This document shows positions 30,254 through 34,137 of a stretch of DNA of 64,000 nt, piece by piece. The stretch is taken from the sequence record NC_054908.1; one strand, 5' to 3'. The DNA is from Escherichia phage vB_EcoM_DalCa. Both the position numbers and the translations under genes were made by a program. The first letter of the stretch is position 1; each line of letters begins with the position of its first letter. Under the pieces are notes generated by a model. It had not been told where the DNA came from. It worked only from the letters and a program-made list of their open reading frames with translations, and made no database searches.

Positions 30254-30670
30254 TTAAATGTAAATATTTTTGCCGTAATACTTATACCAGTGTGGCTTCA
30301 TTAAAATTTTTTCATCGAGTCGTTGTTGACTCAACTTAATAGCTGATTTGCATGGATTATAATCATTTTTCCATTCTACTGGAATATCGCTGATGTCAGG
30401 AACTTCAGTATCTTTTATACTGAACCCGCGTTTTAAGCATTCCGTTATAATGTCCGATTGACGCTTTCGCAAAAATTCTAACTTATCGTAAAAGAAAGTA
30501 ACATGACCAGAACCTAAAATAAATTTAGAAGATATTTTAAAATCTTTAACGCGCTTACCGTTTGCCACATGCTTACGAACTATACCAAAAACACGCGGCA
30601 ATTCACGGTATTCTGCGATTAAATGTTGATCAGCAAGTTCAGATACTAAAGTCAAATTAATACGAGTCAT
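30254..30670 (-). CDS. denV: Endonuclease V (pyrimidine-dimer DNA glycosylase/AP lyase)
   Basis: 138 aa; recognised T4 endo V sequence [17 protein letters not shown]... Confidence 0.9.
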
Positions 30671-30695
30671 TTTATCCCTCCAAGTAACTGTGAAT

Positions 30696-30724
30696 ATACT
30701 ATCACAATTCTAGGAGAAAGTAAA
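30696..30724 (-). promoter_or_regulatory. T4 early-type promoter upstream of denV
   Basis: Minus -35 GTTTACT, 17-bp spacer, -10 TAGTAT; lies between e and denV. Confidence 0.5.
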
Positions 30725-30729
30725 CAACT

Positions 30730-31260
<531 letters not shown>

Positions 31261-31716
31261 TTAAAAGAGGCTGTTCATTATTCGGTAAAGTGAAGGACCC
31301 ATCACATATTGCCACTGAGTACGAGGAATAAGAGCAAAAGCATCCATCTCTGGAATCATAACGCCATCTTTATTTTCAAAATAAGACTCGCAATGGCAAT
31401 TTCTAAACATCTCATGCTCTACTGGAATCGTATAATAAAATAACTGTAAGTCTTTATTACTAGAATATTTAAATACACCTAAGTCTTCTAGAAGGTCTGG
31501 ATTATAATCGATAAAACCAGTCTCTTCTGAGCATTCTCTTTTTGCAGCTTCCAGTGCATTCAAATCAGAACTTTCTACGCGGCCCTTTGGAATATCCCAG
31601 CGATGTGCCATCATTCCAGGCTTACGAGAACCAGTAACCCGACCCATAAATAAATCTTTATCTTCTGTCATAAAGATAATACCAGCTGATAGTGTTTTCA
31701 TTTTAATTTCCTGCAT
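31261..31716 (-). CDS. nudE: Nudix hydrolase
   Basis: 151 aa; Nudix box GRVESSDLNALEAAKRECSEETGF; position immediately after e as T4 e.1. Confidence 0.75.
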   Translation of the reverse strand: MQEIKMKTLSAGIIFMTEDKDLFMGRVTGSRKPGMMAHRWDIPKGRVESSDLNALEAAKRECSEETGFIDYNPDLLEDLGVFKYSSNKDLQLFYYTIPVEHEMFRNCHCESYFENKDGVMIPEMDAFALIPRTQWQYVMGPSLYRIMNSLF

Positions 31717-32186
31717 TCAGTGATAAAGTTATTTAAATTTTGAGTATATTTCTTTTCATCAAAAATCTTTTGTTGTCTGCGTAAACGCCATGGCATTTCA
31801 ATGAACATACGCCATATTCCTGATAATACTGCTGCTGTAAAAATATTAACAAGTATAGTTAAAAGAACCCAATCTCCTATTCTGTCCATTGGATTTTTTA
31901 TAAAAAAGTAAAATACGAACGATGATATAGGAAGACTAATGATATACCACAGAAGAACCTTCTTATCTGTGAACCAATCAGCATTCGTTAACTTAGCGCG
32001 ACCGTTTTGAATACATACGAACTTATCATCTGTTACAGTAAATGGCTTAGCTGCTTGATATCCCATTCTAAACTCCCTAATCAACAAATTTTTCATATCT
32101 TCGGAACAACCATTCCAGTCAACTCTATCAACTGAAATGCCATCATCCCCATCATCTAAATCATACCAGCGAGTTTTTAAAATCAT
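31698..32186 (-). CDS. Hypothetical membrane protein (paralog group with next two ORFs)
   Basis: 162 aa; central hydrophobic helices; C-terminal ...FITECRKLK. Confidence 0.5.
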   Translation of the reverse strand: MILKTRWYDLDDGDDGISVDRVDWNGCSEDMKNLLIREFRMGYQAAKPFTVTDDKFVCIQNGRAKLTNADWFTDKKVLLWYIISLPISSFVFYFFIKNPMDRIGDWVLLTILVNIFTAAVLSGIWRMFIEMPWRLRRQQKIFDEKKYTQNLNNFITECRKLK

Positions 32187-32545
32187 TTAATTTTCCTACA
32201 ATCACTCACAAACTCTTCCATTGATTCTTTTTCAATATAAGACATATAGCTATTATATTCCTTTAATTGTATTTTGTAATCCTTTTTTCTTTGCCAATTT
32301 ATTTTAAAATTATCATAATGAAAATATAACATGGTACCAAAGAATGAAAATAATGAAATCGCTATAGTAAAACGAAGTTCACTCCAAACCTCTGTTATAA
32401 TTACTGTGCCGTCGATATTTAAAATAAAACAGTCAATTAACAATCCAATAAGACTACCCGCAAGAGCTGTAAATACTGATACAGCAAGAATTAATAGTGC
32501 CTCAGGAAACGAATATTTGACTTTATTTAGTTTTGGCTTTTGCAT
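32183..32545 (-). CDS. Hypothetical membrane protein (paralog group)
   Basis: 120 aa; two TM helices; C-terminal ...FVSDCRKIK. Confidence 0.5.
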   Translation of the reverse strand: MQKPKLNKVKYSFPEALLILAVSVFTALAGSLIGLLIDCFILNIDGTVIITEVWSELRFTIAISLFSFFGTMLYFHYDNFKINWQRKKDYKIQLKEYNSYMSYIEKESMEEFVSDCRKIK

Positions 32546-32940
32546 CGTGATTCCTTAACAAATTTCATAATTTCATCAAATTCATACATATCTAGCTTAA
32601 GCTGGTGTTCCTTTTTAATCTTTTTACACTGAGCTTTCCAATCACGTACACGTTTACGATAATGTCTTCCTTGATACCAGTATCCTACCCAATTTACGGG
32701 TACTAATAAAAGTGGAACTATTAATGGAAGAATTAGCATTAACACAAGTATTTCGCCAGAATCAATATCAGTCATAACATCTAAAACACCTCCAATAATC
32801 AATAGAATTACAAATGATATGAGTATAACAGGACCTATTAACACATCAGTAGAAATTATCTGACGCTTTGGTTCATACTTCACAGGTTTACTTGGAAGGT
32901 ATAGTGATGGTTTTGACATATTCTCTACATTCCTTAACAA
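32527..32940 (-). CDS. Hypothetical membrane protein (paralog group)
   Basis: 137 aa; two TM helices; C-terminal ...FVKESRCKSQN. Confidence 0.5.
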   Translation of the reverse strand: MLRNVENMSKPSLYLPSKPVKYEPKRQIISTDVLIGPVILISFVILLIIGGVLDVMTDIDSGEILVLMLILPLIVPLLLVPVNWVGYWYQGRHYRKRVRDWKAQCKKIKKEHQLKLDMYEFDEIMKFVKESRCKSQN

Positions 32941-33502
32941 ATTTTTCTAGTAATAAATCACTTTCAAAATTGGGATTTTCTACAAATTTATCAAAAAGAT
33001 CATCAACAATAGTTAAGATATTCTTTTTACTAAGAATACGTTTATTTTCATGCTTCGTTTCAGAATCAACTATAAGAGTAAAGAAATATTTCTTGCCCTG
33101 AAATTTTACAGTAGTATCAATATAAAATAAATTTGACTTTTGTAAATTACGTTTAAACCATGCGTCACTTAAACTATAAACACCGAGATAATCAAAATCG
33201 TCGTTTAAATAACAAACCGTCCATTCAGGAGAAATGAAATCAGTAAATTCAACATCAAAATCACACGTCAATGAATGAATTGATTCAATACTGTTAATGA
33301 GTATTCCAGGACGTATTAAAGACTTTTTACCTCTAGAAAATCTTCCGGAAAGGCTTTCATCAGTTTCATATGAAGACCCCCAATAGTAATTACGTCCTTC
33401 TGCCATGCGTTTAAGAGCATTTAGTAATTGGTCTGGAACATCAACCTGTCTTTGGAACTCTTCAAACATTGAATTGAAATCACTTTGCATTTTCATTTTC
33501 AT
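32888..33502 (-). CDS. Hypothetical protein
   Basis: 204-aa ORF. Confidence 0.5.
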   Translation of the reverse strand: MKMKMQSDFNSMFEEFQRQVDVPDQLLNALKRMAEGRNYYWGSSYETDESLSGRFSRGKKSLIRPGILINSIESIHSLTCDFDVEFTDFISPEWTVCYLNDDFDYLGVYSLSDAWFKRNLQKSNLFYIDTTVKFQGKKYFFTLIVDSETKHENKRILSKKNILTIVDDLFDKFVENPNFESDLLLEKFVKECREYVKTITIPSK

Positions 33503-33520
33503 TCCTATTTACTCCAAGTA

Positions 33521-33540
33521 TAAGGGGCCGAAGCCCCTTA
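33521..33540 (-). terminator. Putative terminator hairpin downstream of 33544..34137
   Basis: TAAGGGGC-CGAA-GCCCCTTA palindrome; weak U-tract. Confidence 0.4.
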
Positions 33541-33543
33541 TCA

Positions 33544-34137
33544 TTATTTCAGAGAATTAATGTATTCCTGAACATCGGCAGAGGTAGTTTCAACCCCAGA
33601 AATATTACCGTTAAAGGTTTCAACTCGAGCAAGGGTATCTTCAATATCAACCTTAGTCAGTGCTGCAATTTCAACTACATCATCAGCAGTACTAATTCCA
33701 AGGGCATTTGCTGCACGAGTTTCACGGATATATTCCAATTTAACCGCAAGTTCTTGACGAGCATCATCTAACTCAACTACTTTCTTGGCGATTTCAATTC
33801 GCATTTCAGCATAACCGTCAGCCTTAGTAGTCAACTGCTCAGCTGTTCGACGATATAGTAAACCGAGTTTAGCATGCATTGTTACATCTTGGCCTTCGGA
33901 AAGAAGTTTACGAATTTCACGCTCTTTTGATTCGGCCTGTCGATTCTTTTCGATAACAAGTTCACGAATACGTTTTTCTTCGTTAATAGATTTAACAGAA
34001 GCAGTTTTTAGATCTTTAATTTTATCAAGTAGTTTTGCTGCTGCAGCAGTATACTGTTCTTCGACAGATAGATTTTTAGCCATAGCAGAACCAAGTTTAG
34101 TGCGAATAAACTCAACAATTTTCTTCAGTGTGTTCAT
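33544..34137 (-). CDS. Hypothetical coiled-coil protein (PspA/IM30-like architecture?)
   Basis: 197 aa, almost entirely predicted alpha-helical coiled-coil with E/K/R-rich heptads. Confidence 0.5.

Follow-up and report, generated by a model that had tools for sequence, protein, structure and literature searches.

T4 genes e.2, e.3 and e.4 are early open reading frames (ORFs) that have been annotated for decades and are uncharacterised; they are listed as 'conserved hypothetical, predicted membrane protein', and databases hold them as three unrelated families with no record of a common motif. Among described systems, T4 Imm (83 aa) is likewise small, early, non-essential and located in the inner membrane with two hydrophobic helices, but has neither the long basic tail on the cytoplasmic side nor the F-I-K-E-C-R motif of e.2-e.4. 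T4 Sp (spackle) has a signal peptide and a periplasmic soluble domain, whereas e.2-e.4 have two transmembrane (TM) helices and a cytoplasmic tail. Class II holins (S21-type) match in size range, predicted topology, charged cytoplasmic C-terminus and position near the endolysin gene, but share no homology with e.2-e.4, whose orthologues are early rather than late and neutral in knockdown. Promoter-early stem-loops, short intergenic cassettes of T4-type genomes, are said to be involved in recombination. Those intergenic cassettes resemble the locus described here in having short boundary repeats with precise gain and loss of accessory genes; here, however, the repeat lies in coding sequence (C-terminal codons, Shine-Dalgarno site and start) and, unlike that of the promoter/stem-loop cassettes, is also constrained as a peptide.

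The window, the whole 64-kb stretch of DNA analysed, is that of a Tequatrovirus (T4-like phage) and is 99.9% identical to vB_EcoM_G2540-3 DNA. The three consecutive ORFs singled out in a preliminary description are present on the minus strand and, by PHROG matches and synteny, are the orthologues of T4 e.2, e.3 and e.4. Their products match phrog_2203 (e.2, E = 3.3e-78, aa 1-160), phrog_2330 (e.3, E = 2.2e-58, aa 1-118) and phrog_2604 (e.4, E = 1.4e-70, aa 1-130), and their homologues, which carry precomputed Pfam assignments PF26896 and PF26873 in databases, are 69-99% identical. e.2 proteins of 99-100% identity were found in many Tequatroviruses, and e.3 homologues in T-even phages only. Identity to the T4/T2-type proteins is 81-88%, and gene order, strand, overlaps and the lengths of e.3 (120 aa) and e.4 (130 aa) are as in T4; e.2 is intact here (162 aa), whereas in the T4 reference a -1/+1 pair of frameshifts disrupts it and the annotated product has 102 aa. 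The T4 order e.5-e.4-e.3-e.2-nudE-e is kept, and comparison of the window ORFs with the T4 and U115 annotations places e.6-e.5-e.4-e.3-e.2-nudE-e on one strand. The three genes, previously described as downstream of lysozyme gene e, lie transcriptionally upstream of both nudE and e.

Organisation and predicted membrane topology of the block

The 5' boundary of the block is marked by a stem-loop capped by a C(UUCG)G tetraloop (33520..33541, minus strand) between e.6 and e.5, whose stem differs in sequence yet still pairs in Mosigvirus and Dhakavirus. All genes that follow are on the minus strand and overlap. The first is e.5 (32888..33502; phrog_2607, E = 9e-110), encoding a soluble protein of 202-204 aa with no TM segment; this adjoining, non-membrane fourth gene carries the same tail as the other three and was overlooked in the preliminary description. 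It overlaps e.4 by 32 nt. The third of the ORFs described earlier, 32527..32940, is real, but its start at 32940 is a TTG without a ribosome-binding site; the ATG at 32919 is preceded by AAGGAA and yields 130 aa, the length annotated for T4 e.4, and e.4 is therefore placed at 32527..32919 (ORF call, start context, PHROG). The start/stop overlaps previously described for the three ORFs are real: e.4 overlaps e.3 (32183..32545, 120 aa) by 19 nt, and e.3 shares an ATGA with e.2 (31698..32186, 162 aa). The last gene, nudE (e.1; 31261..31701), encodes a Nudix hydrolase (Pfam NUDIX, E = 4e-13). Judged from start contexts and the annotation of phage U115, it probably starts at 31701, with AGGAAA upstream, and not at 31716, in which case e.2 and nudE also have an ATGA in common. 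Because the genes overlap, we infer that e.5-e.4-e.3-e.2-nudE forms a translationally coupled block. A promoter scan gave counts no higher than background.

The hydrophobic helices reported in the preliminary description were recovered as two stretches per protein, with Kyte-Doolittle 19-residue means of 1.96-3.04, and topology prediction makes each product a two-helix membrane protein with N-in/C-in orientation. In e.2 (ORF call, PHROG and hydropathy), a soluble N-terminal domain (aa 1-76) is followed by TM1 (aa 77-96; 31899-31958) and TM2 (aa 106-129; 31800-31871), with a short loop between them, and then by a predicted basic cytoplasmic tail of 33 aa ending in NFITECRKLK. In the e.3 product (ORF call, PHROG, hydropathy and segment charges), the N-terminus is basic, an acidic loop separates TM1 (aa 16-42; 32420-32500) from TM2 (aa 58-77; 32315-32374), and the predicted cytoplasmic tail ends in EFVSDCRKIK. 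The e.4 product, also with a basic N-terminus, has TM1 (aa 26-46; 32782-32844) and TM2 (aa 57-81; 32677-32751) linked by an acidic loop and, by prediction, a long basic cytoplasmic helix followed by a final helix ending in KFVKESRCKSQN. The orientation is predicted from charge, since the loops are acidic or neutral (-3 in e.3, -4 in e.4, 0 in e.2) and the flanks basic (+4 to +11). All three are thus predicted to be small inner-membrane helical hairpins whose two ends lie in the cytoplasm, TM2 continuing into a basic cytoplasmic helix and then a short C-terminal helix. An AlphaFold2 model of e.4 (pLDDT 69) has helices at residues 24-49, 54-108 and 111-128; that of e.2, of low confidence (pLDDT 49.9) and lacking the N-domain, has helices at 70-96 and 103-161. 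Foldseek searches with the e.4 model returned only its own orthologues from BFVD and no match below E = 4.8 from the PDB, and sequence searches of the PDB with e.2, e.5 and e.6 gave no match. Sequence entropy was 0.06-0.26 bits in the cytoplasmic parts, against 0.42-0.93 bits across TM1-loop-TM2 in e.3 and e.4 and 0.21-0.42 bits in e.2; in e.4, a hypervariable TM1-loop-TM2 part contrasts with almost invariant cytoplasmic parts.

A C-terminal motif doubling as a ribosome-binding site

The resemblance among the C-terminal tails, already remarked on in the preliminary description, is real and far beyond chance. The pattern F[IV]x[EDG]CR has only three matches in the six-frame translation of the 64-kb window, each of them 3-11 residues before the stop codon of e.2, e.3 or e.5, and the e.4 variant FVKESR(C) is the sole additional match to a looser pattern in the same six frames. 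e.2, e.3, e.4 and the soluble e.5 (tail motif EKFVKECREYVK) share a C-terminal module with the consensus L-E-x-F-[IV]-K-E-C-R-K. Each T4-like genome sampled has one e.5-like soluble protein and two to five small membrane proteins bearing this module, and e.5-like proteins retain the motif in the other genera examined. Across 37 T4-like loci the strict motif was found near the C-terminus of 129 of 657 coding-strand ORFs upstream of nudE, compared with 4 of 706 downstream ORFs and 1 of 673 ORFs on the opposite strand.

The motif codons, located by motif search on the minus strand, also provide, as either AAG GAA or AGG AAA, the Shine-Dalgarno site for the gene that follows and overlaps. In the e.5 tail, FVKECR (TTT GTT AAG GAA TGT AGA; 32924..32941) supplies AAGGAA for the e.4 ATG at 32919, and in the e.4 tail, FVKESR (TTT GTT AAG GAA TCA CGA; 32545..32562) supplies AAGGAA for the ATG of e.3 at 32545; these two tails have the 13 nt TTTGTTAAGGAAT in common. 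The e.3 tail codons FVSDCRK (TTT GTG AGT GAT TGT AGG AAA; 32192..32212) contain the AGGAAA for the e.2 start at 32186, and the e.2 tail codons FITECRK (TTT ATC ACT GAA TGC AGG AAA; 31707..31727) that for the nudE start at 31701, so that TGY AGG AAA forms a direct repeat between the e.3 and e.2 tails.

Selection nevertheless acts on the peptide, since all six Arg codons are used across T4-like genera. Among 120 non-redundant instances, the motif Arg is encoded by AGA (36), AGG (20), CGT (33), CGA (11), CGC (10) and CGG (1), and the Cys by TGT (64) and TGC (56); W or Y may replace F, and I, V or M may replace C. This codon table led us to reject a purely nucleotide-level origin of the motif.

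Probable common ancestry, and gain and loss of cassettes

The preliminary description had taken e.2, e.3 and e.4 for a tandemly duplicated membrane-protein family. Small membrane proteins with a common cytoplasmic tail they are; direct pairwise similarity, however, is confined to the tail (e.2-e.3) or absent. By BLASTP, e.2 and e.3 align over their final 14 aa alone (E = 0.005), and e.4 matches neither; the e.2/e.3 tail score was attained by 3 of 3000 shuffles (z = 5.2). Each tblastn query matched one place per genome, and PHROGs assigns the proteins to three separate families. A HMMER profile of e.3 had seven matches among 1.84 billion proteins, five of them relatives or fragments of e.3 and the other two chance or chimeric sequences; e.2 and e.4 were unmatched, and the search gave no functional lead. 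With diverse profiles, hhalign joined e.2 to e.3 (94.9%, E = 4.7e-8) and e.3 to e.4 (89.6%, E = 1.9e-6, 26 C-terminal columns), the significant alignments spanning 21-26 C-terminal columns only; narrow profiles (Tequatrovirus only, Neff about 1.2) were uninformative. e.2 and e.4 showed no direct similarity by BLASTP, shuffle test or hhalign (3.9%), and outside the tail no pair showed direct pairwise or single-profile similarity by BLASTP, hhalign or the e.3 profile.

Whole-protein links among the three arise solely through intermediate sequences in iterated searches. When 2593 ORFs from T4-like loci are searched with jackhmmer, the three families merge, with TM1, TM2 and tail collinear (TM1-TM1, TM2-TM2, tail-tail). 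The first cross-family HMMER matches are borderline, at 16-18 bits and near the best decoy for the e.2 profile (16.5 bits); intermediates score 20-30 bits with two family profiles, the floor set by a reversed database being 0-16.5 bits. One seeming e.2-e.4 homologue, P0096 (38% identity over 78% of e.4), was set aside as a chimera: an in-frame deletion has fused aa 1-31 of e.4 to aa 88-162 of e.2, and the protein is not evidence of homology. The common tail is by itself no proof of whole-gene duplication, because the soluble e.5 carries the same tail, which could be a module acquired separately. Paralogy is thus partly supported by these comparisons, and the hairpin-plus-tail units of e.2, e.3 and e.4 probably arose by tandem duplication of a single ancestral unit and then diverged past pairwise recognition everywhere but in the tail.

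The repeated junctions are also recombination sites, at which, in two genera, whole genes have been deleted or inserted precisely with the downstream start left intact. Deletion of e.2 in ZN18, PST, PP01 and others occurred by crossover within the common TGCAGGAAA, placing the crossover of the e.2-less phages inside the TGY AGG AAA repeat, and Dhakavirus genomes differ in whether they have an e.4-like gene between AARGAGGTTCRWA/ATG junctions. ZN18, besides lacking e.2, has a broken e.5; together with the frameshifted e.2 of T4, this indicates that the block decays freely.

Candidate functions and significance

The T4 orthologues belong to the early RNA class and their proteins have been detected (PMC9697503 supplementary files 4 and 6), e.4 as an early protein (PMC9697503 supplement), and CRISPRi-ART knockdown scored them 'Not Fit' (PMC11879866 supplementary file 15). 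They are dispensable in the laboratory, and the block is presumably accessory, not essential. Searches of Pfam, NCBIfam and PADLOC returned sub-threshold noise only, with no match of e.2-e.6 to PADLOC defence models at E = 1 or below and no report of PF26873 or PF26896 from the local Pfam copy. The name 'sulfurtransferase', which NCBI gives to some e.3 and e.4 clusters, is supported by no model and was treated as a propagated misnomer. Literature searches by gene name gave only noise, and these genes go unmentioned in Nolan et al. 2006.

Superinfection exclusion and interference with membrane defences were among the roles first proposed, and comparison with Imm and Sp showed no relation to either: hhalign gave 0.6-2.3% for Imm and 2.1% or less for Sp, and HMMER 7.8 bits or less (Z = 1) for Imm. 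It is nonetheless conceivable, if unlikely, that the three proteins are independent exclusion or anti-defence effectors analogous to Imm, each acting alone, the tail being a stability, insertion or turnover tag. In favour of this, they are early-expressed, accessory, small inner-membrane proteins whose TM/periplasmic part is hypervariable (alternative alleles, indels) beside fixed cytoplasmic parts and whose copy number differs among genera; but the lack of likeness to Imm or Sp and of any PADLOC or NCBIfam match weighs against it, and tight translational overlap with a constant e.5-like partner suggests joint action.

We think it improbable that the tail similarity is a mere by-product of overlapping translation signals, the proteins being unrelated and the peptide functionless. 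Purine-rich Shine-Dalgarno sites and AU-rich enhancers in frame would yield tails rich in K, E, R and G, and every junction in the window does have K-E or R-K codons as its Shine-Dalgarno site, 5-8 nt before the ATG. A Shine-Dalgarno site covers about 5 nt, however, and leaves the invariant aromatic residue, I/V, Cys and Arg unexplained; the use of all six Arg and both Cys codons and the replacement of F by W or Y argue for the peptide, motif positions 3-4 are highly variable in DNA, and in the e.5 family the motif is kept even 6-15 codons before the stop. The e.5-like protein of JS10 counts on both sides: its motif, FIKECREY, is encoded with AAA GAA TGC CGT and, lying 25 nt 5' of the next start, is not a Shine-Dalgarno site there, in support of selection on the peptide, whereas its K-E codons, AAA GAA and not AAG GAA, favour the by-product reading.

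A role in lysis timing, also proposed in the preliminary description, is made less likely by the fact that the T4 orthologues are expressed early, and holin- or antiholin-like proteins left as remnants or accessories of a lysis cassette beside endolysin gene e are very improbable: their class-II-holin-like build (small, two TM helices, predicted N-in/C-in, highly charged cytoplasmic C-terminus) and an endolysin gene two genes away must be set against early transcripts and an early e.4 protein, knockdown without fitness effect, no match to a holin family in Pfam or PHROGs, soluble members of the motif family, and T4 lysis already explained by t, rI, rIII, e and the spanins.

The explanation that we narrowly consider probable as a whole is that e.2-e.4 are membrane hairpins of common ancestry, that they share a dual-use tail module whose codons form cassette junctions, and that the tail serves in docking. 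The tail helix would be a common cytoplasmic docking element through which the co-translated proteins may bind each other, with e.5 tethered to the membrane hairpins, or bind one common partner, while the fast-evolving TM and periplasmic part would adapt, early in infection, to envelope or competitor targets that vary. The docking element and this adaptation are more tentative than the rest, a possibility to which we give limited credence; the whole basis for a docked complex is co-translation, the common motif and the conservation pattern. The motif finding by itself reveals no function.

On a broader and rather doubtful reading, the L-E-x-F-I-K-E-C-R-K helix would be a hitherto undescribed docking motif that defines a T4-like early superfamily, in which one soluble e.5-like protein and a variable set of hairpin membrane proteins would form an inner-membrane complex. 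The hypervariable TM and periplasmic parts would then be engaged in an arms race, in superinfection exclusion or counter-defence, and genes could be swapped as plug-and-play cassettes with coupling kept, because the motif codons are both ribosome-binding and recombination site.

In the literature searched we found no description of a motif linking e.2-e.5 and other small T4-like proteins, of its codons also forming the following gene's ribosome-binding site, or of repeated junctions that explain precise gene loss and gain. The motif provides a concrete handle on a block of T4 'dark matter', namely one motif and one candidate complex, and the block is a small, clear case of dual-coding constraint combined with cassette-like genome plasticity.

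Gene order and overlaps around e.2-e.4

All genes from denV to e.6 in the window lie on the minus strand and in the order of T4: denV (30254-30670), e (lysozyme, 30730-31224), nudE (31261-31701/31716), e.2 (31698-32186), e.3 (32183-32545), e.4 (32527-32919), e.5 (32888-33502), and e.6 (33544-34137). The three small ORFs e.2, e.3, and e.4 are thus transcriptionally upstream of nudE and e, not downstream of lysozyme as the preliminary description placed them. Their existence is confirmed by ORF calls and full-length PHROG profile matches (phrog_2203, phrog_2330, and phrog_2604, respectively; E = 1e-58 to 1e-78), and the surrounding 4 kb shares 99.9% identity with Escherichia phage vB_EcoM_G2540-3, with matches in >600 T-even phage genomes. 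At 30254-31224, denV directly adjoins e; ipII and ipIII, which lie between them in T4, are absent here.

The start/stop overlaps claimed for the three ORFs are present, and the overlapping block reaches further in both directions (e.5/e.4 by 32 nt; e.2/nudE via ATGA). For e.4, the ATG at 32919 is preceded by AAGGAA and gives 130 aa, the same length as in T4; the alternative TTG at 32940 lacks a ribosome-binding site. The start of nudE is ambiguous: the ATG at 31716 (151 aa), chosen in the T4 annotation, is without a Shine-Dalgarno site, whereas that at 31701 (146 aa), chosen in phage U115, has AGGAAA at the usual spacing and an ATGA overlap with the e.2 stop. Transcript-stabilising and terminator hairpins have long been known in T4 mRNAs, and a stem-loop with a C(UUCG)G tetraloop (AAGGGGCUUCGGCCCCUU; 33520-33541, minus strand), located between e.6 and e.5 immediately 5' of the e.5 ribosome-binding site, is probably one or the other. 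Hairpins at the same place in Mosigvirus (GGAGGACUCCGGUCCUCC) and Dhakavirus (GGGAGACUUCGGUCUCCC) have stems that differ yet pair.

The shared C-terminal motif and the relationship of the three proteins

Six-frame translation of the 64 kb yields only three matches to F[IV]x[EDG]CR, namely the C-termini of e.2, e.3, and a fourth gene, e.5, which encodes a non-membrane protein; e.4 ends in the variant FVKESRC. The tail similarity noted earlier is therefore not a chance resemblance. Motif-bearing ORFs number 2-6 per locus within 6 kb upstream of nudE in 37/37 T4-like loci, typically one e.5-like soluble protein (180-320 aa) and 2-5 small membrane proteins. A strict form ([FWY][IVLM]xxC[RK], <=16 residues from the C-terminus) was found in 129/657 coding-strand ORFs upstream of nudE, 4/706 ORFs at and downstream of nudE, and 1/673 on the opposite strand.

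The consensus of 122 distinct instances is [LIF]-E-x-F-I-K-E-C-R-K, with hydrophobic residues at i, i+3, i+4, and i+7 on a single helix face and a Cys replaceable by I, V, or M. Codons vary for both Cys (TGT 64, TGC 56) and Arg (AGA 36, AGG 20, CGT 33, CGA 11, CGC 10, CGG 1), and W or Y stands in place of F in some instances; this variety shows, at the level of sequence, that selection acts on the peptide. In the window, the K-E (AAG GAA) or R-K (AGG AAA) codons of the motif double as Shine-Dalgarno site for the gene that follows and overlaps. In phage JS10, where the e.5-like motif has the codons AAA GAA TGC CGT and lies 25 nt 5' of the next start, a separate AAAGAGG is the Shine-Dalgarno site. 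The tail is thus a dual-coding element: it is conserved as a peptide, and its codons also serve the predicted coupled translation of the next gene.

Direct similarity among e.2, e.3, and e.4, previously described as paralogous, is weak or absent beyond the tail. BLASTP matched e.2 to e.3 over the last 14 residues only (E = 0.005), and tblastn with each query found one place per phage genome and no second copy even at E <= 10. A search of 1.84 billion proteins with an e.3 profile gave seven matches, none of them e.2 or e.4 (five e.3 relatives or fragments and two chance or chimeric sequences). In segment-preserving shuffles, the C-terminal half of e.2 reached z = 3.9 with e.3, the e.2/e.3 tails reached z = 5.2, and e.3/e.4 and e.2/e.4 stayed at z ~1. 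Diversity was sampled from 41 nudE-centred loci from viral contigs plus annotated Mosigvirus, Dhakavirus, and Kanagawavirus loci. With disjoint, diverse family alignments as input, hhalign paired e.2 with e.3 (probability 94.9%, E = 4.7e-8, 21 C-terminal columns) and e.3 with e.4 (89.6%, E = 1.9e-6, 26 C-terminal columns) and found nothing direct between e.2 and e.4 (3.9%); T4 Imm, also a two-TM protein and an earlier suggestion for comparison, reached <=2.3% with each. These profile alignments demonstrate homology for the C-terminal 20-26 residues.

In jackhmmer searches of 2593 ORFs of the sampled loci, the three families merge after 3-4 rounds in collinear alignments (TM1-TM1, TM2-TM2, tail-tail), and the e.5 family does not merge with them. 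The first cross-family matches score only 16-18 bits, against a reversed-database noise floor of 16.5 bits (e.2 profile), 9.7 bits (e.3), and no match (e.4). Among the small two-TM proteins, several intermediates score 20-30 bits with two family profiles. The hairpin-plus-tail unit as a whole is likely to descend from one ancestor, and several features fit this: the e.3 and e.4 N-termini are alike (MQKPKL..KVKY vs MSKPSLYLPSKPVKY), the e.5/e.4 junction resembles the e.4/e.3 junction in DNA sequence, short e.2 relatives without the N-terminal domain exist, and phages vB_EcoM-UFV05 and UFV11 carry a natural in-frame e.4(1-31)::e.2(88-162) fusion (P0096; H138). The fusion removes e.3 wholly, with its joint at a shared SFV within TM1, and its product has 106 aa, two TM, and the e.2 tail.

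Gene loss, decay, and neighbouring genes

e.2 is missing from ZN18, PST, PP01, and other Tequatrovirus phages. The resulting junction (e.3 ...GAGTTTGTGATTGAT|TGCAGGAAATTAAAATGAAAACA... nudE) corresponds to a crossover within TGCAGGAAA, common to the e.3 and e.2 tails, and leaves e.3 directly coupled to nudE. Among Dhakavirus loci, an e.4-like gene is present in L011 and absent in L014 and JS10, precisely between two AARGAGGTTCRWA|ATG junctions. In these two genera the repeated junctions thus behave as cassette boundaries.

In Yersinia phage ZN18, e.5 is split in two, into ORFs of 145 and 92 aa (L010, 4684-5299), which indicates independent decay of the block. The T4 reference e.2 (NC_000866, locus L001, 5470-5961, corresponding to window 31698-32186) is not merely shorter: an A-run has lost 1 nt (A6 to A5), and 78 nt downstream of it a compensating 1 nt is inserted. 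Between these two changes, 26 codons that include TM2 are out of frame and contain two stops, after which the original frame returns through FITECRKLK. An e.2 protein product is reported in T4 proteomics despite the frameshift (PMC9697503).

Two further features are seen in related genera. The first is a second tandem family, with 3-5 members side by side, each a small soluble protein of 65-101 aa ending W-[VF]-S-S-S-x-x-C plus stop; it lies just after e.3 in Mosigvirus SHSML-52-1 (L003, 2857-3651), Dhakavirus JS10 (L004, 2851-3639 and 3871-4095), and many of L011-L043; the window's e.5-nudE block shows no copy. The second is a protein of 228 aa, very highly conserved and ending ...KKITNEIRVNAQVYLEFPMEGW, whose gene lies directly upstream of the e.2 orthologue in Dhakavirus, Kanagawavirus, and other genera (L005, 2722-3408; L006, 2243-2929; most of L011-L043). 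It is absent from the e.5-nudE block both in the window and in those Tequatrovirus loci that were examined.

Topology, conservation, and possible role

Hydropathy gives two hydrophobic helices in each of e.2, e.3, and e.4. Charges in e.3/e.4 are +4/+5 at the N-terminus, -3/-4 in the loop, and +6/+11 in the TM2-adjacent tail; e.2 has a neutral loop and a basic tail. By the positive-inside rule this distribution predicts an N-in/C-in topology, in agreement with the hydrophobic helices and cytoplasmic tail originally proposed. The e.4 model (pLDDT 69) has helices H24-49, H54-108 (TM2 with a cytoplasmic extension of ~27 residues), and a terminal H111-128 bearing the motif; the poor e.2 model (pLDDT 49.9) shows TM helices and a helical tail only. 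Across Tequatrovirus, the N-terminus and tail, both cytoplasmic, hardly vary (entropy 0.06-0.26 bits), and TM1-loop-TM2 of e.3/e.4 varies (0.42-0.93 bits) and includes alternative alleles and indels, the contrast being weaker in e.2 (0.21-0.42 bits). This pattern suggests a conserved cytoplasmic partner and relaxed or diversifying selection on the membrane/periplasmic part.

No informative match was found in Pfam, NCBIfam, PADLOC, PDB sequences, or Foldseek. The NCBI names "sulfurtransferase" (some e.3 and e.4) and "DNA primase" (one e.3) have no NCBIfam/Pfam model behind them (e.3 records P0002, P0006, and P0022; e.4 records P0107, P0120, P0140, P0141, and P0160). According to PMC9697503 (supplementary files 4 and 6), the RNAs of the T4 orthologues are all early-class and every protein was detected; PMC11879866 (supplementary files 8 and 15) lists their function as "Unknown" and, as to dispensability, scores their CRISPRi-ART knockdown "Not Fit".

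As a working model, the products are accessory early inner-membrane proteins. In the model preferred, though only tentatively, the tail helix would be a common docking element through which the co-translated products of e.5, e.4, e.3, and e.2 bind one another or a single shared partner. Alternatively, the proteins may be independent effectors of Imm-like exclusion or of counter-defence. A holin-type role, as in the lysis-timing suggestion made earlier, is disfavoured by the early expression of the T4 orthologues and the lack of homology.

The genes e.2, e.3, and e.4 are real and were already annotated. To call them a paralogous family is partly right, in that they share the C-terminal module and probably have a common origin; the functions first suggested for them find no support. 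No description of the motif superfamily, the dual coding, or the cassette indels was found in the papers searched, and these are modest additions to what is known rather than a new kind of system.
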